Source: a virus
Taxonomy: Duplodnaviria > Heunggongvirae > Uroviricota > Caudoviricetes
IMG/VR virus record: IMGVR_UViG_2724679074_000004
Coordinates: 1 to 33,787 of that record
Length of the DNA stretch: 33,787 nt
Reading direction: 5' to 3' (one strand)
Shown: positions 36 through 22,685 of the stretch, piece by piece
How the letters are laid out: each line of letters starts with the position of its first letter
Position numbering within the stretch: position 1 is the first letter of the stretch
Program-made: the position numbers and the translations under genes
The notes under the pieces: model-generated
Seen by the model: only the letters and a program-made list of their open reading frames with translations
Told to the model about the DNA's origin: nothing
The model's database searches: none

Positions 36-2318
36 TTACGGACCGATTATAATCTGGTCAGATGGGCTATCACTGTCTGGCTTTGAAGTTCTCATCTTTA
101 ATTTGTTATCTGCACTAACCCACAAATATCTCCCATTGATTACTAGGTACCCATCAGAGTAGTTACCGTCGAAATTTATTCCTCCCTTAACCCTAGCTCC
201 GTTCCATCCAGACCCTGAAGCAAAGGATCCTTTTAGTTTGTTAGGTTCCATTTGCGGGTTGGTTATTGATCCAGCAAGAATAATACTTGATGATACAGAA
301 GATTTATCCCTACATCCCGCACCAATTATTAAACCATCCTGCGATTGCGCTTGAATAGTAATTGCCGATGTTGATTCGGATAAACTGTTTACTTCAACCT
401 TGTTGTTGCTTCCAATGGTGTAATCTACGCCTGTGACTGGATTTCTTACGCCAGCTCCGAATCTGCACGCTATGTTTATATTTGTACCTGTCCCAAGCCC
501 AGTGGTTTTCATCTTGAAATCACTGTCAATGGATCCAAGTACGCTGAATGACTTGCACATCCCCCTAACATCTGAGCCTACCAAATCTCTTATTTCCATA
601 GGTTCTTCCGGTGTATTTATATCTGTAAAAACACTATACGCACATCCCTGAAGAAATACCTGACCACCGCTTATGTTTGTTACAACTGAATTTAGTAGGC
701 CGTAAAACCATACGCCTCTGTTTACGGTCGATCTTGGTTTTTCTACAATAACACCATCAATTGTCATCCCCTTGTTCCAACAATAGTATGGAGTATATAA
801 TGCGTCCACAAACACACCATAATCACCTTGATTGCCAGTAGCCGTTGTATTATCAACCGTTATTCCTGAAATCTGCATCTTGGGACAACTCATAAACTTG
901 CATGCAGCGTTATCAGTAACTGATGATGACCCACCCACCCTTAAATCTCTAGCTCTAGATCGACCAAAACAATAGGTGTGATTTATTGATGATGGCTCCC
1001 CGACCCCAATAGAGTTGATGCTTTCAACGGTCGAATCATAGTTATAGCCAACGATAAGCCTATCAATTTCTAAATTGCATATTTTTGGGGTATCACACTG
1101 TCTAATCTCAAGGCGCTTTATTCTCCCCCCGCCACAAATAACAACATTTGGCACGAGATCTGATTTTACAATCCATGGATTTATGTGCGTGTAGTTTAGT
1201 CTTGCCTTAAGAAATATTCCAGTGCTGTTAATGCTATGTATCTTTGCCAACTCAAAGTAATATGGCTTAGCCTCAACTGAATACGCCCCGCTAGTGTTCT
1301 CAATCCTTATAACATCACCAACTGAGAATAAAGAAGTGTAATCTCCAGGGATGATGTAGTCATCATTATTTAAAGTGCCATTGTATTTAATTGCAGCTTG
1401 TAGCTCAATGACATCAGGGTTTTGATATGGAAATCTAGTTGGAGTGCTTAGTGTTAGCGAAGTTCCGCTTTTACCTGAAATATTTGAAATATCAACCCCC
1501 GTCTCATTACCTTGTGACGCACTTCCGCCATCGCCATCCCTCAACTTCAATGCAGCAGCGCCTCCAATAGAGAATGATGAGAAATTACCAGCTATGTTTG
1601 TTGTGCCAGCCGGCACAGATGACCATGGCAATGTTGTGCTTACTTTGTTTTTCTCTTTGAAATATTTACCCTGAATGATAAGTGAGAAATTTAGAAATGA
1701 AGATGGACTTACCTCAATATTTGCCGGAATATCTATTATAACTGGATTGCTAGTATAGGTACCATTCATGAATTTACAAGAAACACCCTTCTCAAACGCT
1801 GAGGTTATAGCGTTCCTAATGCTAGTAGTGTTATCAGCTATAGGTTTACCATTTGCATATCCATGCGCCTCTGGAGTCTCCCAGCCAAGCAGTGGATACA
1901 CATAGTCTGCAAAATCCTGAACACTTCCTCCATCTTCCATTCCTATGAAAGATGCTCCAGAATCTGAAGATAGCAATATTAATAGATTCCCAGGGTCTAC
2001 TTTTGATAGGTCGCCCCAATAGTATTGTTGTGAACCATATGTATCATACACCGCCATGCTGAAGTTCTGTTTGGTGATGAACTTCATAATTTGGCCGTTA
2101 TAAACAGGGAAGCCTCCAGCGTTAATGATGATTGGCTGAGAAACCTGAACCTCGGATCCATTCTCATTAACGGCATATACCGGAATTTGGTTAGCAGGAT
2201 TTACCGGGTCAGTGTCAGGGTTTCCGATATAGATTTTCCCGTTCGCCACTGATTTAAATGCTCGTGGCGCCGAAAAAGGTGTAGACGGCATAGAGACAAG
2301 GTAATTGGTGTCAGTCAT
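36..2318 (-). CDS. Tailspike protein: P22 gp9-like N-terminal head-binding domain fused to a divergent receptor-binding domain
   Basis: 760 aa ORF; first ~110 aa (SAPRAFKSVANGKIYIGNPDTDPVNPANQIPVY..) closely match the remembered P22 tailspike head-binding domain; remainder does not resemble the P22 domain; last gene of the late operon. Confidence 0.85.
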   Translation of the reverse strand: MTDTNYLVSMPSTPFSAPRAFKSVANGKIYIGNPDTDPVNPANQIPVYAVNENGSEVQVSQPIIINAGGFPVYNGQIMKFITKQNFSMAVYDTYGSQQYYWGDLSKVDPGNLLILLSSDSGASFIGMEDGGSVQDFADYVYPLLGWETPEAHGYANGKPIADNTTSIRNAITSAFEKGVSCKFMNGTYTSNPVIIDIPANIEVSPSSFLNFSLIIQGKYFKEKNKVSTTLPWSSVPAGTTNIAGNFSSFSIGGAAALKLRDGDGGSASQGNETGVDISNISGKSGTSLTLSTPTRFPYQNPDVIELQAAIKYNGTLNNDDYIIPGDYTSLFSVGDVIRIENTSGAYSVEAKPYYFELAKIHSINSTGIFLKARLNYTHINPWIVKSDLVPNVVICGGGRIKRLEIRQCDTPKICNLEIDRLIVGYNYDSTVESINSIGVGEPSSINHTYCFGRSRARDLRVGGSSSVTDNAACKFMSCPKMQISGITVDNTTATGNQGDYGVFVDALYTPYYCWNKGMTIDGVIVEKPRSTVNRGVWFYGLLNSVVTNISGGQVFLQGCAYSVFTDINTPEEPMEIRDLVGSDVRGMCKSFSVLGSIDSDFKMKTTGLGTGTNINIACRFGAGVRNPVTGVDYTIGSNNKVEVNSLSESTSAITIQAQSQDGLIIGAGCRDKSSVSSSIILAGSITNPQMEPNKLKGSFASGSGWNGARVKGGINFDGNYSDGYLVINGRYLWVSADNKLKMRTSKPDSDSPSDQIIIGP

Positions 2319-2418
2319 TTGATGTGCTCCTGGCGCAATTAGTCCCCACAGCAGAGCTGCGGCAAGCTATAGTTACATACCGAAATGGTACGATTGTTGA
2401 TTTATCCAGTAGGTTACG

Positions 2419-2826
2419 ATGCCATTCCACCCAACTGGTGAGGCATCAAGGATGTACAGCAAATACGACGAGGCGAAGTTTCACTTGAGACTTCCGCATG
2501 AACTCCACGCGAAAATTAAACAGCGCGCGAAGATGAATAACAGGTCACTGAACTCAGAGATAATTGCAGCGATTGAAGAATCATTGGCTAAACAAAGCTC
2601 TGCATCAGTTTACATTGACGATGCAGAGCGTATGCAGAACAACAATCTGATATGGTTAAGAAAATTGTCTTTGATACGCTCAAAGAGCTATATAAAAAAG
2701 ACAGCAGTTAACCATCAGTTACGGAGGATTTATGCAAAGAGATACGCTGAATATTGCGTTCTACATATTTGGTTTTTGCACGTTCCTGGTGTTTGCGAAG
2801 CTATTCTGACAACGCATCAGACTTAG
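2419..2826 (+). CDS. mnt: Mnt-like ribbon-helix-helix repressor (immI remnant); true start possibly the internal ATG at ~2452; C-terminal ~40 aa extension overlaps gp16 3' end
   Basis: Segment FHLRLPHELHAKIKQRAKMNNRSLNSEIIAAIEESL resembles the RHH N-terminus of P22 Mnt/Arc; divergent orientation between gene 16 and gene 9 homologs matches P22 mnt. Confidence 0.55.
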   Translation: MPFHPTGEASRMYSKYDEAKFHLRLPHELHAKIKQRAKMNNRSLNSEIIAAIEESLAKQSSASVYIDDAERMQNNNLIWLRKLSLIRSKSYIKKTAVNHQLRRIYAKRYAEYCVLHIWFLHVPGVCEAILTTHQT

Positions 2827-4798
2827 CCCCCTGAGTCAGGGCGTTAATGGCCTTTTGTGCCTGCTGCATGGCTTTCTCAAACGCTGTTGATCCGCGTGGG
2901 GTGTTTGCCATTCGGAGCATTGCATTTCTGAATGCCTCGCTCTCATAGGCGCGAGTAAGAAGTCCGTAGCTTACTGCTGCGCCAGTTGTTGCAGGGTTCA
3001 TTGCCGTCCCATACCCAATAATGAACGGGATGGTTTGCTGACCTGTGGGCGTTGTTACTGCCGCTTTTGCAGCCTGCTGCGTGGATTGAAGGTAGTTTTT
3101 CAATCCTTTCAGATAAGCAGCATCCTGCCCCTTAAATGTTATTCCAGTCTGGTTTTGCAGGATGTTAAGCTGTCGAAGAAACTGGTCAGGGGAACCACCT
3201 GATTTCTCCATCGCCTTTCCAATGATGCCATTGCGCATTTGCGCCCTACCAACACGACCAACTGAGTTATACAGAGTCTTAATTTCAGATTTGTTCTTGC
3301 TGAATAGCATGTTGTTGACAACTTCCGGCGTCAGGTCGCCTTTCATGAGAACATTCTTCAGCCTGGTATTCTTTAGTTTCGCCGCTTCGTCAGCGTAGAC
3401 GGCATTGGCCTGCTGATATTTACGGAGAGTATCGTTGCCAAGATTCTGACCAATGGCACCATTGATATCGTCGGTCATTGCCTTGTAAACGCGCTGAATG
3501 GCAGCATCGGAACGGTTTGGTAACACTGGTCGCTCACCCTTCACATCCATTCTGAACTGGCTGCGCAGATCGCTTAATTGCTTCAAATCCAGATTTACCG
3601 GACCATCAGGACCAGCATTGCGAACAAGCTCATCACGATAGGACTGAAGTTTTGAAATAGTCTCGTTATCAGCAACCTTACCGAGCTTCTGAAGGTTAGA
3701 TATTTCTGTATCAATCTGCTGAACTGCTCGTGCAGGCTGAATGTTTACTCCTGCCATAGCATTCTGAACCTGCTCCAGTCGATTACCGGCAGCACGACGA
3801 ATTCCTGATGTTTTCGCTTTAAGGCTGTCAATAACAACCGCTGGGTCATACTCACCGAATTTATCGGCAAATCTCTGCACCAACTGGCTTCTCGCTTCCT
3901 GTTGCGTTGCTCTCATTCCGCTTGTTCCAGCCAGAGGGATATTTTCTGCTGTAGTCTGCGCCATTTTTCCGACGCGGGAAGTAGGCTGTAACAGGTCTGT
4001 GGTGTGCAGAGGAACGCCTTCACGCTCTGCAAACCTGATAGCCTGCTGCGCTTCAGGCGCAATAGCACCACGAACGCCACGATAAGCAGCACCTAATCCA
4101 CGTCCGGCAGCGTTAATAGCACCGCCAGCCAGCACACCAACGCCTAAATCGGTGGCGAGTGCTTCCGCATCATCTTTCGCACTATTTGCAGCAAGTGATC
4201 CAACTGCGTTTTCAGCGAGAAGGCGAGTTGCCCCCTGAGCAATTCGACCAGCAAGTGTTGGTGCCTGTGCTGCCGCTCTCTCAACGCCAGCAGGAGTGAG
4301 GTAAGGCAATGCTTCAGCAAATATCCTTCCCTCTGTCGTTTGTGGAGTCAGCGCGCCTTGCTGAAGGCCAAAGTCCTGCTCTAATCCCTGCGTTGTTACT
4401 CGTGGAGCTGGTTGATATGTACCATCGCCAATACCGAGTTTACCGCCAGCCCATGCCGCCGCGCTTGTTACAGCATCGGCAACTGATGCAGGTATGTTTG
4501 CCACATTCACGCCAGCCTGCACCAGTCCGCGACCAGTCTCTTTTACTGCTTCGCCAAGATCAGACATAAATCCACTTTGCTGTGGTTGTTGCTGTGCTAC
4601 TGGCTGTTGTGTCTCCACTGGCTGCACAGATGGCAATGGATAGGCAGCATAGAAAGCTTGCTTAGCCTGCTCTGCATTTTCTCCGGCTTGCGGGGCCACG
4701 ACTTCATTGAAGTATTGCTCCTGAGCCTGCGCTTTTTGTTCTGGTGCTAACGCCTGATACTGTGGAGAGGCGATAACATCTTTCCATGCTTTAGCCAT
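2801..4798 (-). CDS. Ejection (DNA-injection) protein, P22 gp16-like
   Basis: 665 aa ORF in the gp7-gp20-gp16 position and order; Gly/Ala/Gln-rich; size close to P22 gp16 (609 aa). Confidence 0.75.
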   Translation of the reverse strand: MAKAWKDVIASPQYQALAPEQKAQAQEQYFNEVVAPQAGENAEQAKQAFYAAYPLPSVQPVETQQPVAQQQPQQSGFMSDLGEAVKETGRGLVQAGVNVANIPASVADAVTSAAAWAGGKLGIGDGTYQPAPRVTTQGLEQDFGLQQGALTPQTTEGRIFAEALPYLTPAGVERAAAQAPTLAGRIAQGATRLLAENAVGSLAANSAKDDAEALATDLGVGVLAGGAINAAGRGLGAAYRGVRGAIAPEAQQAIRFAEREGVPLHTTDLLQPTSRVGKMAQTTAENIPLAGTSGMRATQQEARSQLVQRFADKFGEYDPAVVIDSLKAKTSGIRRAAGNRLEQVQNAMAGVNIQPARAVQQIDTEISNLQKLGKVADNETISKLQSYRDELVRNAGPDGPVNLDLKQLSDLRSQFRMDVKGERPVLPNRSDAAIQRVYKAMTDDINGAIGQNLGNDTLRKYQQANAVYADEAAKLKNTRLKNVLMKGDLTPEVVNNMLFSKNKSEIKTLYNSVGRVGRAQMRNGIIGKAMEKSGGSPDQFLRQLNILQNQTGITFKGQDAAYLKGLKNYLQSTQQAAKAAVTTPTGQQTIPFIIGYGTAMNPATTGAAVSYGLLTRAYESEAFRNAMLRMANTPRGSTAFEKAMQQAQKAINALTQGAKSDALSE

Positions 4799-6153
4799 TA
4801 ATCACCCCATAGTGAAGAAAAGTTACTGCCGGCTGCTGGCTGTGATACCTGTGTAGGTTGAGATTGCTGCCGCTGAGATTTACCAACATTAACGTTATAT
4901 TGTTGGTTGTAATTGTCGGTATATTGCTGAATGTCGCGCATTGATTGTTGCAGTGCTTCAGGGCTTGAGAAATCAACCTGTGGCATACCTTGAAAATACA
5001 TCTTTGCTTCTGCAACGGTGTTGATACCGGATGCCCCCATGTCTCTGGCTGCTGCAATGCCCTGATTCTGCATCTTTCCTTGGATTCGCTGTGCAGCGTT
5101 GTATAGTTTCCTCTGATCACCACCAGATGCACGGCTACGAATATCTGCACCAAGAGCAGGAGAACCTGAAGAGCCTGTAATGCCAGTCATGAAGCCAAGA
5201 TCGTCAATTGATGCACCAGAAATTGCATCAAGATCTTTCTTCATTGCGTAATTCTGCGCACTTGCTGCCGATGTAGCCGGAGCGGCAATAGAGCCAGCAG
5301 GAACGCGAACCATATTCCCCTCGTTGTCGATACCTTCGTAGAACGCATTAGCCCCAGCGCCGTGAAGCTTCCCGCCTACCGTTACAGTTCTGCCATCTGC
5401 TAACTGAACTGTACGCTCATTATTCCCAACCGACCCTTTCATTGATGCTCTCTGCATCGATAAATCCTGACCGCGCATCGTGATATTCTGACCACGTGCT
5501 GTTAGCGCCTCTCCAGCCTTATTGCTGCGGATTGTCTCTGCCAGCCTGCCTCGGTCAATCTCACGACCAGCCATCTTGTCCTGAACATTGAAGTAGTCAA
5601 TCGGGCCAAGAGCAGCCATCCCAAGGTGATCAACAAACTCACCAAATCCTGAAGGGTTCTGCCGATACATCTGAGCAACGCTGTTAGGGTCAACACCGAC
5701 GCGAGTAAGTTCCTTGGCGTTGTTTTGCAGCCATGATTGCATTGCTTCTGGAGAAGATGACGCAAGACGTGCGCCAGCCGCTAATGTACCGATAGAATTA
5801 CGCTGGTCTTCATCAATGAATCCCATGCCTTTACGAACGGATTCAATCTGGTCTGGATATTGAGTAGCTAACTGACGCAAAGCACCGCGATCACCAGACG
5901 CATAAGCATTAGCGTATGCCTGCTGAAATTCTTTCTTCCGCTGAGCCTGCTTTTCCTGCTGAAAAACACCCGCAATACCTGAAAGGCCTTGCAAAGCAGT
6001 CAGCCCAACATTGTTAGCGCCTGAACGCTCAATATCATTGTTCTGCCTGATAAGCTGAAGCGTATTGCCGATGTCATTTACGCTCGGAGCGTTTGAGTTG
6101 ACGCCGCCGATACCAGCCAACAATCCGCCGTTTGTTCCTTGCCAAGTAGCCAT
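4798..6153 (-). CDS. Ejection protein, P22 gp20-like
   Basis: 451 aa ORF (P22 gp20 is ~471 aa) between gp7- and gp16-like genes; start overlaps upstream stop. Confidence 0.75.
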
Positions 6154-10442: not shown

Positions 10443-11738
10443 TCACGCGGTCTGGTTAGGCAGACCAACACCAATTGCCTCTGGTCGTACAGCACATGCT
10501 GAATACCACACAGCAATACGGCACTTACCAGACAGAGTGTTGATATCACCCTGCGTTGCGAAGATGCCGTTAACACCAATACCAGGAATGCTGAAGGAAG
10601 ACGTTTTCATACCAGCAAACAGTTCATGGGTTACCGGGATCGGCTGAGACAGTAGGCGGATTGAGTCATCAGCCCAGAACACGTTAGCGGTGGTTGTTGC
10701 CACGTTCAGAACGTTTACCGGAGTGGTATCAGCAAGAGAGGTGTTTACGTTAGCGTAAGCCTTCTCTTCTTTTGTCAGTGACGCATCATCCAGTGCAATC
10801 GGTTTCGGCGTGATTTCGATGTGAGTACCATCGATCACACGGGTGATTGAGAAAGTCGCATCATCAGTCAGCACGTTCTTCGCCATCTGAGACAGGAATT
10901 TCACACCAGTGAAGCTGATTTTGTCGCCGCGCTTAAATCCGGTGGTGGAGGATACGGTCACCGTTGCAACACGGTTGTCGACGTTCTCTTTGTTACCATC
11001 GGTATCAAGGGTGTATGCCTGCGGCTTAAACTTCTGCGCACCAGAAACAGTTACACCAGTAGCGGCTGACTTGGTAACTGCCGGAAGTTTCGGTGAGCGA
11101 AGAATTTCATCAAAGCCAGCAATCTGACGCTGAATAGTACCGTTGCGATACGCTTCTTCAGGAACGCGACCGAAGATGTCACCATCTACCAGGTTGCGGC
11201 CTGCTTTGCGGTAATCGTCAGGGTTCAGGAAGTAACTGATGCCCATATCGCGGTTTAGCTCACGGGAGAACATCAGGCGCTCTGCATCAGACACAAAATC
11301 CCAGCCAGACAGGCCAGTAGATGGACCAATTGCGCGGGTATCGTGAACAACAAGCGAGCCCATTTCAGTTGCCTGTTTGGCAATTGCTGACTCAATGTTA
11401 TTCGCCAGTTTTTTGGCGGATGCCTGGATGCGGCGACGGTAAGAACGCTCATCACGCAGGTCATCTGCACGAAGCTCGAAGAAATCGTTATCCGGATCGC
11501 CCATGTTGCATTTCACGGAGAGTTCCAGAATCCCGGTTGCGTTGCCAGTTAAATCCCAGCCAGTCTGGGTTGGCGCTTCCTGCTCAACAGGCATCCACAC
11601 GGTGTTGCTTGAACGCTGCATGGATTCTGCCGGAGGGGTGTATTTTGTCACTTTGGACGCCATTGGCGTCAGGTTCTGGACGGTTTCGATGATTTCATCC
11701 AGAGCATACGTGACCAGTTGACCTTCATTTAATGCCAT
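10443..11738 (-). CDS. Major capsid (coat) protein, P22 gp5-like
   Basis: 431 aa; near-colinear match to remembered P22 coat protein ([18 protein letters not shown].., ..[13 protein letters not shown]). Confidence 0.95.
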
Positions 11739-19757: not shown

Positions 19758-20279
19758 CTAAATGGATAATTGCATGTCAAGGCTTTTAACAGCAACATGC
19801 TTAACTTTCTCAACACGTTTACGCATTTTGAAAGCATTTTGCATTGGCTGGTACAAAACAAATAACGACGCTTTCAGGATGTCGTCAATTTCGTTTCTAC
19901 AGGTTGCCAGTGAAGGTTTTCTCCATCCCTCGCCACCACGTCCACACATCTTGCGTGGCTTTGCAGTCGCGTGATAGTAGGATGCAATTGCTCGCTTAGA
20001 TGAACCATGAGCGTAGTAGCTGAGGAGGATGCCAAAGGCTTTCTTGTCAATGTACATGACGGAATCGACGACCTGAGAAATCAACATTCCATCATCATCA
20101 TTGCACATTGGCCTTGTCATAACTCTTCCCGGCTCTACGCTCTCCATGAACTTCGCTATTACGCTGCTCATGCGCTTTTCCAGACGACCTGAATAAACCC
20201 ATGCGCCCCACAGTTCAAGCCAGCAATTCAGCCAATCGTGCTGTTCTTTGGTGAGGTTTAGTTCTCTTATGCTCATCAT
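19758..20279 (-). CDS. Late-gene antiterminator Q (phage 82 / Phage_antitermQ-type, gene 23 position)
   Basis: 173 aa ORF directly downstream of the nin genes and upstream of the late leader/lysis genes; resemblance to 82-type Q proteins is from memory. Confidence 0.55.
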   Translation of the reverse strand: MMSIRELNLTKEQHDWLNCWLELWGAWVYSGRLEKRMSSVIAKFMESVEPGRVMTRPMCNDDDGMLISQVVDSVMYIDKKAFGILLSYYAHGSSKRAIASYYHATAKPRKMCGRGGEGWRKPSLATCRNEIDDILKASLFVLYQPMQNAFKMRKRVEKVKHVAVKSLDMQLSI

Positions 20280-20461
20280 CTTCCCTTTTTGCCTGGCGTT
20301 ACCATCAGGACGCCGTTAACTATTACGTGACGCTCACCTTTGCTGTCTCGGTTGTACTTGAGCACTGTTCCTCTTGCACAGGAAAGCATCCTCGCCACTT
20401 CGGTCTGATTGCCTCGTGTCTGGATAAGAAGCTCTGGTATCGTTTGAATTGTGGCGTTCAT
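20276..20461 (-). CDS. ninH: NinH
   Basis: 61 aa; ..GNQTEVARML.C.RGTV.KY....G..H.IVN.VLMV.. matches lambda/P22 NinH. Confidence 0.85.
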   Translation of the reverse strand: MNATIQTIPELLIQTRGNQTEVARMLSCARGTVLKYNRDSKGERHVIVNGVLMVTPGKKGR

Positions 20462-20820
20462 GCGTTCTCCAGTTCGGTGATTTTTATTCCAAGTCTTCCA
20501 CCTGGTACTTTCACACCACGAATTACGCGAATGTCATCGAATTGCTCGTCGTCTTCCGCAAATCCGGCGTGGATAAGGGAGTCGAGTAAACCTTTCAGGA
20601 TGTTGTCGAGGTCGCGGCGGCGGGAGTCTGGAACGTCTGCGATGACTTTGATACGGAGTCGTGATTTGGTGAAAATGTCTAACTTGAGTTGGCGGATGAT
20701 TTGCTGAACGTCTTTTCGGTATTTCTGGCCTTTATCGCTGATGTAGTATTGGCTTCCCCGTCTTCGCCAGTAGGTATTCACCGATGGCGGGTATGGAAGC
20801 ACAAACTGATATTCGTTCAT
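20458..20820 (-). CDS. rusA: RusA-family Holliday junction resolvase
   Basis: 120 aa; LPYPPSVN.YW....., DVPDSRRRDLDNILKGLLDSL matches the RusA catalytic motif region. Confidence 0.9.
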   Translation of the reverse strand: MNEYQFVLPYPPSVNTYWRRRGSQYYISDKGQKYRKDVQQIIRQLKLDIFTKSRLRIKVIADVPDSRRRDLDNILKGLLDSLIHAGFAEDDEQFDDIRVIRGVKVPGGRLGIKITELENA

Positions 20821-21107
20821 GACTTAATCTTCCCCTCCTTCAGCAGTATCGCCTGCGTCCTGATCACGCCTTCGAGGTGGTAAAGTCTGGCGTCTTTGTT
20901 GTCGAGATTATGGGTGCGTCGGTCGATTTCATCGTGACACGCGCTACAAGCCCATGCGCCGATCAGGTCGTCAGGCTTCATTCCCGTTCCGCAAATTCCA
21001 GCCATCCGGTAATGTGCCAGAACTGTAGTTTCAGGATTGCCATTGCATACGCCGTAAATACGTACCTGGCATTCTCTGCCGCGTGCTTCTTTGCGTAGGT
21101 TAGCCAT
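20817..21107 (-). CDS. YbcO-like (DUF1364) putative nuclease
   Basis: 96 aa; RGRECQVRI.GVCNGNPETTVLAH.R..G.CGTG.KP.DL....ACSACHDEIDRRTH matches remembered DLP12 YbcO. Confidence 0.7.
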   Translation of the reverse strand: MANLRKEARGRECQVRIYGVCNGNPETTVLAHYRMAGICGTGMKPDDLIGAWACSACHDEIDRRTHNLDNKDARLYHLEGVIRTQAILLKEGKIKS

Positions 21108-21829
21108 TAAGCAGCCTCCCCTGTTACTTTCAGCATTCCGTTATCGAGCAGCTTTCTGGTCAGCCACTGTTGACCGCGCCCGGTGATTTTTGTGGTGAAC
21201 GATATCTGTATTCCGTGATTTGTGTTGACCGCTGTTTCTTTCACTGTGAAATAGCCGCGCTCCATATATTCCTGCATTGGCACATTTCGCCGGGAACCTG
21301 AAGCAATAAGGATTTTGTGATCGCGCATCCATGCAAACAGTTTGTTTTGACCAATACCGACAACCTTTGCAAAGTTTCCAATCAAAATTCCGCTGGCCTC
21401 GCCAACGCGATCGGCAAACTCAACTTTAGGTGCGGCAATTGCGAGCTGGTTTTCCAGTTGCATTTTCTGCTCAGCAAGATCAGCAGCAAGGCGCAACGCT
21501 TCCGGTAGCGTTTTGGGGATATTAACCGCAGCTTCTTCAAGCTCTCGCCAGCGGTCAACAAGGCGAGCGGTGAATTCCGGCGACAACTGGGCTACAACGA
21601 CAATACTGTCTCGCTTTCCTTGTTCGCCCTCGAAGACGTAATGCTCGTACTGAACATTGAACCCTAAGTTATTGATTCTTTCGGAAACCTCAATTTGAGG
21701 AAGCCGGATAACACCATTTTTAGCCAGCGTTTCGATGGTACGTTTCACATTGTCATGACGCTTACCCACCAACTCAGCGATTTCAATGCTTGTCATTTTG
21801 ATGGCATTGCCATTCATTAACTCACTCAT
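21107..21829 (-). CDS. Rha-family phage regulatory protein / antirepressor-like (N-terminal Rha domain, C-terminal antirepressor-type domain)
   Basis: 240 aa; family assignment from overall resemblance to Rha/KilAC antirepressors recalled from memory; located in nin region. Confidence 0.55.
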   Translation of the reverse strand: MSELMNGNAIKMTSIEIAELVGKRHDNVKRTIETLAKNGVIRLPQIEVSERINNLGFNVQYEHYVFEGEQGKRDSIVVVAQLSPEFTARLVDRWRELEEAAVNIPKTLPEALRLAADLAEQKMQLENQLAIAAPKVEFADRVGEASGILIGNFAKVVGIGQNKLFAWMRDHKILIASGSRRNVPMQEYMERGYFTVKETAVNTNHGIQISFTTKITGRGQQWLTRKLLDNGMLKVTGEAA

Positions 21830-21995
21830 CGTCTTCTTCCTCGTACATTGAGCTATTCGGATCGCTCATCAGTTCTGCGCAGCACGCTTCACATACATGA
21901 ACTTCCAGCACATGCAGCTTCTGACCGCAGTTAGCGCACGTTAAAGCCCGCTCGACGCTTTCTTGTTCGTAACTTCGATTTGGGTCAATCACCTT
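21822..21995 (-). CDS. Possible small zinc-ribbon protein (57 codons, GTG start), translationally coupled to the Rha-like gene
   Basis: Frame contains C-x2-C ... C-x2-CC (CANCGQ..CEACC); stop overlaps downstream ATG (ATGAGTGA); GAGGAA 7 nt upstream of GTG. Confidence 0.35.
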
Positions 21996-22171
21996 GTATT
22001 CCTCGCACGTTCTCTAAGCCACCGGATATCCCACAGGTGAGCCGTGTAGTTGAAGGTTTTTACGTCAGATTCTTTTGGGATTGGCTTGCGTTTATTTCTG
22101 GAGCGTTTGGTTGGAAGGTATTTGCAGTTTTCGCAGATGATGTCGGTGATGCTTCGTCGCTGTCGTCTCAT
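21989..22171 (-). CDS. ninE: NinE
   Basis: [52 protein letters not shown] matches lambda NinE; ATG overlaps NinB stop (ATGA). Confidence 0.85.
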
Positions 22172-22608
22172 GCCGCCCTGTCTCCCCATCTCGCTTTCCA
22201 CTCCAGAGCCAGTCGCGCTTCGTCTGACCACTTAACGCCACGCTCTGTACCGAATGCCTGTATAAGCTCTAATAGCTCCGCAAATTCGCTTACACGCATC
22301 CTGCTGGTTGACTGGCCTATTACCACAAAGCCATTCCCGGCAAGGTTAGGAACAACGTCCTGCTGCTTTAATGCAGCTGTAAAAACGCACTTCCAGCTTT
22401 CTGCATCCAGCCAGCGACCATGCCATTCAACCTGACGAGAGACGTCACCAAGGCAAGCCCAAAGCTTTCGATTCTGGTCTAAGCTGCGGTTGCGTTCCTG
22501 AATGGTTACTACGATTGGTTTGGTTGGGTCTGGAAGGATTTGCTGTACTGCGTGAATAGCATTTTGCTGAAGTGCTGGAGATCGAATTTCAAAGGTCAGT
22601 TTTTTCAT
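22168..22608 (-). CDS. ninB: NinB (Orf-family recombination mediator)
   Basis: 146 aa from [67 protein letters not shown].. near-identical to lambda NinB. Confidence 0.9.
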
Positions 22609-22685
22609 GACTTCCCTCTCCCCCAAATAAAAAGACCTGCGATTACCAGCAGGCCTGTTATTAGCTCAGTGATGTAGATGGTCAT
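22605..22685 (-). CDS. Possible 26-aa hydrophobic peptide gene bridging ren and ninB
   Basis: ATG overlaps ren stop (ATGA) and its TGA overlaps ninB ATG (ATGA): [26 protein letters not shown]; too short for the ORF track. Confidence 0.3.
   Translation of the reverse strand: MTIYITELITGLLVIAGLFIWGRGKS

Follow-up and report, generated by a model that had tools for sequence, protein, structure and literature searches.

In lysogens of phage P22, the repressor Mnt provides immI immunity, silencing the ant gene of superinfecting relatives. Regions in which mnt is the only such gene left, the Mnt-only "ant morons," have been described in phages ST64T, ST104, Para1, and L together with frame-broken genes of the region, and the same report raised the possibility that Mnt and Arc affect late transcripts running into the P22 tailspike gene (Villafane et al. 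2008, PMC2629481). The mnt gene of phage L, it was suggested, "could have acquired another function or be a remnant" (Zaworski 2020, PMC8022706). The Mnt tetramer is stabilized by the C-terminal domain of the protein, according to Waldburger and Sauer (1995) as cited in PMC3325190.

The DNA analyzed here (the window, all 33,787 nucleotides of IMG/VR virus record IMGVR_UViG_2724679074_000004) has an mnt-type gene at the same locus as P22, between genes 16 and 9, in the same relative orientation and with a promoter/operator layout homologous by position, but it lacks arc, ant, and sar. Phages ST64T, ST104, and L likewise have nothing but mnt and a short ORF between gene 16 and the tailspike gene, with mnt divergent from the tailspike gene; their mnt copies are intact, unlike that of the window, and the ST64T N-terminal allele (QFNLR) differs, with about 53% identity. 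The same gene as in the window, at 96-97% DNA identity and in the same order of tailspike gene, mnt, and gene 16, is found in phages IME10 and Sf101 and as WP_047083750.1. These three copies are intact and encode 86 aa (97 aa if called from an upstream ATG), unlike the copies of the window and of strains EC3 and 8GC, which carry a 1-bp deletion.

An mnt gene without arc or ant

The tailspike gene (36-2318, minus strand) encodes a P22-type head-binding domain (PF09008 Head_binding; E = 2.2e-44), and the P22-type gene 16 homolog, which encodes a DNA ejection protein (2801-4798, minus strand), was recognized from the RefSeq and PF26808 annotation of identical neighbors. The interval between them (2319-2800) is that of a Mnt-only ant moron, holding mnt, on the strand opposite the late operon as in P22, a 25-codon ORF, and nothing else. 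The ORF as first read (135 aa; 2419-2826, plus strand) opens at an ATG upstream of, and in frame with, the Mnt N-terminal domain, which is followed by 63 codons in the wrong frame. It matched the Arc family of Pfam (PF03869; E = 2.4e-14, residues 18 to 60) and, as encoded, PDB entry 1mnt (E = 5e-10), which is far above chance, and the beta-strand and two helices of the RHH fold are recognizable by sequence. The RHH DNA-binding domain spans 2470-2598 (plus strand; PF03869, 1mnt, and protein alignment).

This ORF and the gene 16 homolog are convergent and overlap by 26 nt, and the 63-codon tail covers both the 25-codon ORF and the end of gene 16. A tblastn search of the entire window for homologs of P22 Arc and Ant found none (best E = 0.79). 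The first-pass annotation had described a Mnt-like RHH gene that is divergent from the tailspike gene and has neither arc nor ant beside it, with an ORF that overlaps the end of the gp16 gene, and on these points it was correct.

A one-base deletion places the tetramerization helix out of frame

The mnt-type gene of the window (2452-2711, plus strand) was aligned at the DNA level with the intact references E. coli LR-50 (WP_047083750.1, 86 aa), phage IME10, and phage Sf101. A single G is absent at 2634, changing ATGGCA to ATGCA; the frameshift site (2633-2635, plus strand) follows codon 61, where one G of the GG in CGT ATG GCA GAA is gone. Among the aligned sequences, the one-column gap was confined to the window and the prophage of E. 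coli EC3. In intact relatives, the equivalent of 2452-2711 plus one base codes for 86 aa. Downstream of 2634, the Mnt tetramerization helix, QSDMVKKIVFDTLKELYKKDSS followed by the stop, lies in another frame; its coding remnant occupies 2617-2702 (plus strand), is split by the frameshift, and is out of frame after 2634. The rest of Mnt, AEQQSDMVKKIVFDTLKELYKKDSS in other-frame translation, ends at a stop at 2709-2711. Because the helix is encoded in the other frame, the C-terminal extension of about 40 aa that the first-pass annotation had assigned to Mnt is frameshift read-through, and the true continuation of the protein is the one that ends at 2709-2711.

With the G restored, the gene encodes an 86-aa protein that shares 48% identity with P22 Mnt across the full length and has both the RHH domain and the tetramerization helix. 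The repaired protein matched 1mnt at E = 4.7e-19 (residues 6 to 79), and its residues 56 to 84 matched the tetramerization domain of Mnt (1qey; E = 1.6e-8). The unrepaired ORF lost the 1qey match, and its similarity ended at the junction; the domain corresponding to the C-terminal coiled coil of P22 Mnt is out of frame from codon 62. Alignment with P22 Mnt, which the first-pass annotation had proposed, supported the RHH domain, and translation of the other frame placed the real stop at 2709-2711. A start at 2419 seems doubtful: the ATG at 2452 is where P22 Mnt and the RefSeq models begin in alignment, it is preceded by GAGG at a distance of 8 nt, and 2419 itself falls within the -10-like hexamer (TACGAT, 2415-2420) of the putative promoter of mnt.

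RefSeq annotates the near-identical prophage copy of EC3 as "Arc family DNA-binding protein, frameshifted," over a span equal to 2452-2711 of the window. A frameshift, which the first-pass annotation had named as the mark of a pseudogene, is present in the window and in this annotation alike; the frame is broken relative to orthologs under selection, and independent sequences agree on the break. We conclude that the feature is a P22-type mnt gene (2452-2711) lacking one G at codon 62 and that it is probably a pseudogene or truncation allele, the long ORF being a by-product of the frameshift. Because the RHH domain is kept, almost all of the tetramerization helix is lost, and 63 unrelated residues are added, the allele should be null or strongly weakened.

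The deletion is a rare allele present in several phage backgrounds

The exact 135-aa product was present in the protein collection, in a cluster of 13 variants on about 46 contigs. All variants in this cluster had the junction ...DDAERMQNNNLIW... and K9, yet they had three different out-of-frame tails, which varied by genetic background. At least 10 contigs, assembled from independent runs, encode exactly this product, and they carried two tailspike types (760 aa and 636 aa, the latter with a beta-helix domain) and two gene 16 types (665 aa and 797 aa, the latter with an SLT domain). Of 5426 complete E. coli genomes, two (EC3 and 8GC) gave a megablast match to a 51-mer centered on the deletion, which cannot seed such a match on intact copies; the equivalent intact 52-mer was present in 185 complete E. 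coli genomes. Intact proteins formed two clusters, with 681 and 529 members, and the 15 members listed for the first cluster spanned >900 contigs. With at least 10 independent assemblies carrying it, the deletion is real. The allele is genuine, heritable, and rare, makes up about 1% of this mnt type among complete genomes, and has reached several phage backgrounds through recombination.

The position of the deletion within a GG dinucleotide might suggest an error of sequencing or assembly, or correction of the frameshift by programmed ribosomal frameshifting, but such an explanation is extremely improbable. Sequencing error is ruled out by the identical deletion in the two complete genomes, both of which differ from the window by SNPs, and in at least 10 independent read-set assemblies. 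Programmed frameshifting is rejected because there is no slippery site, CGU AUG CAG AAC being neither a slippery heptamer nor a homopolymer.

Codon 9 (2476-2478) encodes Lys in place of Gln in all frameshifted copies seen, and K9 is very rare among intact copies, being present in one Logan contig and in IMG/VR locus L054. In the alignment, this codon corresponds to Gln9 of Arc and His6 of Mnt, within the strand that contacts DNA, a position that is specificity determining according to Knight and Sauer (1989), a study listed in PMC3325190.

The truncated protein might still be a working repressor, with the RHH dimer binding the operator, perhaps with a specificity altered by Q9K. Its RHH domain is intact, K9 lies at the beta-strand position given as specificity determining in PMC3325190, and the allele, on about 46 contigs, is present in several mosaic backgrounds, which implies that it is not strongly counterselected. 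Moreover, the C-terminal codons show no further decay in their original frame, which counts against a pseudogene, and the product could retain some activity as a dimer. However, the truncated protein has no tetramerization domain, the out-of-frame tail is not conserved and differs between backgrounds, the allele is rare in complete genomes, and the operator sequence of K9 copies is the same as that in Q9 relatives. On this evidence, a functional truncated repressor is unlikely, and a pseudogene or truncation allele is the reading that we prefer.

Intact orphan mnt genes are widespread and under purifying selection

Two sets of related loci were taken from IMG/VR: at least 80 loci gathered with the N-terminal 61 residues of the window protein and at least 120 loci selected by an upstream DNA motif. 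An intact ORF of 86 or 88 aa was present in 79 of 80 loci among the matches listed, the remaining one being a fusion, and the operator-selected set contained several further in-frame variants of the C-terminal helix, with proteins of 84 to 88 aa. In all loci with enough flanking sequence among the set of at least 80, the mnt ATG was preceded, at a distance of 121-141 bp, by a divergent coding sequence for a tailspike head-binding domain. Neither Arc nor Ant was found beside mnt in the protein-selected loci (at least 80) or the operator-selected loci (at least 120), the "Arc" matches in the latter being the RHH domain of Mnt itself. The comparison of immI organization in related prophages that the first-pass annotation had called for therefore gave a uniform picture over at least 200 loci, in which the tailspike gene was always the neighbor and ant never was; the immI arrangement, with Arc and an antirepressor under Mnt, was found neither in the window nor at the mnt loci of these relatives.

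Several variants of the locus were seen. In five of 80 relatives among the matches listed, an inserted HNH/AP2-type homing endonuclease-like ORF, about 600 bp long, separates the tailspike gene from mnt (for example, L054 3331-3819 and L068 3327-3869). One relative among L008-L087 encodes a 203-aa fusion, in which the first 67 Mnt residues are in frame with unrelated sequence, a different route to losing the tetramerization helix, and in another relative Mnt is cut short by a stop codon after residue 31.

Within the first 66 codons of 44 distinct alleles among the matches listed, there were 28 synonymous variants per 39 sites and 13 nonsynonymous variants per 159 sites, giving a pN/pS of about 0.11. 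The intact orphan mnt gene is under purifying selection. Intact copies of 84 to 88 aa are common in E. coli P22-like prophages, and the intact E. coli gene is routinely annotated. Since the gene is widespread and under purifying selection, it is, at the family level, a maintained gene and not a decaying remnant. The latter possibility, raised in the first-pass annotation, is the closer one for the frameshifted copy of the window and is wrong for the family.

Selection in the absence of a target in cis would be explained if orphan Mnt acted in trans, silencing the ant genes of superinfecting relatives that have the same operator, as Mnt is known to do in P22 lysogens. Against this, no Ant homolog was found beside the operator in any of the at least 80 protein-selected and at least 120 operator-selected IMG/VR loci, and protection in trans is quite improbable.

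Candidate operator and promoter upstream of mnt

The upstream regions of the window, LR-50, VSe13, JEP4, Gally, ST64T, epsilon34, and P22 were aligned, with the P22 annotation as the reference. By positional alignment with P22 Omnt, a 17-bp sequence at 2376-2392, CATACCGAAATGGTACG, to which no strand was assigned, is a candidate Mnt operator; its position relative to the -35 hexamer of the mnt promoter matches that of Omnt. At this position, P22 and epsilon34 have AGGTCCACCGTGGACCT (P22 Omnt, directly upstream of the Pmnt -35 hexamer), and ST64T and Gally have the perfect palindrome AGACCAC-N-GTGGTCT (N being G/T). The window type, CATACCGAAATGGTAC(G/T), differs from both, and the symmetry of the window sequence is weak (5 of 8 pairs; core TACC-N5-GGTA). 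The residues of the beta-strand also differ: they are H-N-R in P22, Q-N-R in ST64T and Gally, and Q/K-H-R in the window type (K9-F-H11-L-R13 in the window and Q9 in intact relatives). These differences in the recognition strand would fit a diverged specificity.

Among the matches listed, the candidate operator always co-occurred with the QFHLRL N-terminal domain, and mosaic breakpoints with other prophages fell exactly at its left edge (2373-2376). The Omnt position, the co-inheritance with QFHLRL, and the breakpoints at the left edge speak for 2376-2392 as the putative cognate Mnt site. The breakpoints also suggest that 2373-2376 is a recurrent mosaic junction between tailspike and mnt modules. 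Many further P22-like prophages of E. coli are homologous to the window from exactly 2373-2376 onward.

A putative Pmnt-like promoter (2394-2420, plus strand) was called by its position, homologous to that of the annotated P22 Pmnt, and has a -35 hexamer TTGTTG (2394-2399; TTGAGT in most relatives), a 15-nt spacer, and a -10 hexamer TACGAT (2415-2420). P22 Pmnt is TTGAGA-17-TATCAT, and the -35 hexamers of ST64T and Gally are TTGTGG and TTGAGG, with a 17-nt spacer. The spacer is 15 nt in most E. coli copies, as in the window, and 17 nt in the VSe13/JEP4 type; at 2400-2414 (plus strand), copies with the 17-nt spacer (Salmonella VSe13, phage JEP4, and some E. coli) have GGTTTTACGAT instead of GGTTACGAT. 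The Pmnt-like hexamers were below the threshold of a consensus promoter and terminator scan of 2200-2900, which returned a single site, within the coding region, and no terminator. A repeat finder detected no inverted or direct repeats of >=8 bp in 2300-2470.

Neither the candidate operator nor the 92-bp upstream region recurred elsewhere in the window, where only chance-level 7- to 10-mers matched them. A 15-mer operator scan also gave 49 unrelated chance matches. A post hoc motif, YACC-N5-GGTR, occurs at 2378 and 2428 upstream of mnt and at 10716 and 13325 in coding DNA; it was given no weight because about 2 occurrences are expected by chance in the window. No targets beyond the upstream region of mnt itself were identified in the window.

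On the opposite strand, the equivalent of the strong P22 promoter Pant has decayed (ATGGCA-15-TAAATC vs TTGACA-17-TATATT in P22), and for this reason the tailspike gene would be expressed mainly by late-operon read-through across the antisense mnt gene. The tailspike leader has a predicted 7-bp hairpin (2346-2362, minus strand; CCGCAGC-UCU-GCUGUGG). P22 gene 9 has the same hairpin (L005 6161-6177; CCGUAGC-CAU-GCUGCGG), with differences that keep the pairing via G-U wobbles. The hairpin is predicted in the window, P22, and LR-50, with unremarkable folding z-scores of -0.5 to -1.6.

Small ORFs downstream of mnt

Downstream of mnt and in the same orientation lies an unannotated hydrophobic ORF of 25 codons, MQRDTLNIAFYIFGFCTFLVFAKLF (2732-2809, plus strand), which is preceded by the Shine-Dalgarno sequence GGAGG (2723-2727) and overlaps the gene 16 stop by 9 nt. 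A length of exactly 25 codons is kept in 61 of 62 related loci among the matches listed. The homology of phage Sf6 to the window begins at 2731, and the ORF is kept there even though Sf6 has no mnt gene. The product had no match in Pfam or PHROG and is possibly a small membrane protein that the prophage expresses.

Co-oriented ORFs follow mnt in 70 of 80 relatives among the matches listed. In 33 of the 80, again among the matches listed, a gene for a 161-aa lipoprotein (lipobox LLVGC; phrog_6067) lies between mnt and the 25-codon ORF in the mnt orientation (for example, 4338-4823 in both L009 and L012); this gene is absent from the window. Six relatives among the matches listed have no downstream cargo, which indicates that control of cargo is not the whole story.

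The roi homolog of the nin region

The first-pass annotation had proposed that an orphan Mnt could have been rewired to repress a Rha-like antirepressor gene of the nin region. An antirepressor-family gene is indeed present at 21107-21829 (minus strand) and is a Roi homolog (phrog_63; E = 7e-99). Its start is overlapped by 8 nt by ninF (21822-21992), and ninE and ninB lie further upstream in the ORF map. The stretch suggested for a Mnt operator, 21830-21990, is ninF coding sequence, so there is neither intergenic space nor a separate promoter region upstream of the roi homolog; no Mnt-operator-like sequence was found in this stretch, and nothing like the mnt upstream region or the candidate operator was found near the gene. 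The order roi-HNH-rus-ninH-Q is that of HK620, a standard block of the PR operon. With the window copy of mnt frameshifted as well, and with no second copy of the mnt upstream region in the window, the rewiring proposal is unsupported and very unlikely. The nin region as a whole (19758-22626, minus strand) reads ninB-ninE-ninF-roi-HNH endonuclease-rus-(ninH)-Q, in the HK620 order, and ends with a Q-like antiterminator gene (19758-20279, minus strand).

Possible role of the intact gene and implications

In intact relatives, an 84- to 88-aa Mnt tetramer would be made in the lysogen from the weak Pmnt-like promoter and would bind the 17-bp site just upstream of the -35 hexamer of its own promoter, which would provide autoregulation. 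Late transcripts heading for the tailspike gene would also cross this site, and the mnt transcript would run on into the co-oriented small membrane protein and lipoprotein ORFs. We tentatively propose, as a possibility, that the intact E. coli orphan Mnt is a selected regulator unrelated to antirepressor control, with a Q9/H11/R13 strand and the cognate site CATACCGAAATGGTAC, and that it either gates late read-through into the tailspike gene or drives a small membrane protein/lipoprotein operon that includes the 25-aa peptide. Our confidence in any mechanism at the family level is much lower than that in the pseudogene or truncation allele of the window. That allele may persist because the prophage has no antirepressor at the locus that needs silencing.

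One frameshifted allele of a repressor gene that is common in phages matters little in itself and is already known, since the allele is flagged in RefSeq and Mnt-only regions have been described since 2008. The results go slightly beyond the published accounts consulted in the purifying selection on intact copies, the strict separation from ant among at least 200 loci, the positional homology of the putative operator, and the 25-codon ORF. If the intact gene is a selected regulator, then the frameshift lineage would be a natural knockout that has spread into several phage backgrounds, and the natural frameshift strains EC3 and 8GC are ready-made controls for mnt function. Because purifying selection acts on mnt without an adjacent antirepressor, the question posed for phage L, function or remnant, leans toward function for the E. 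coli type.
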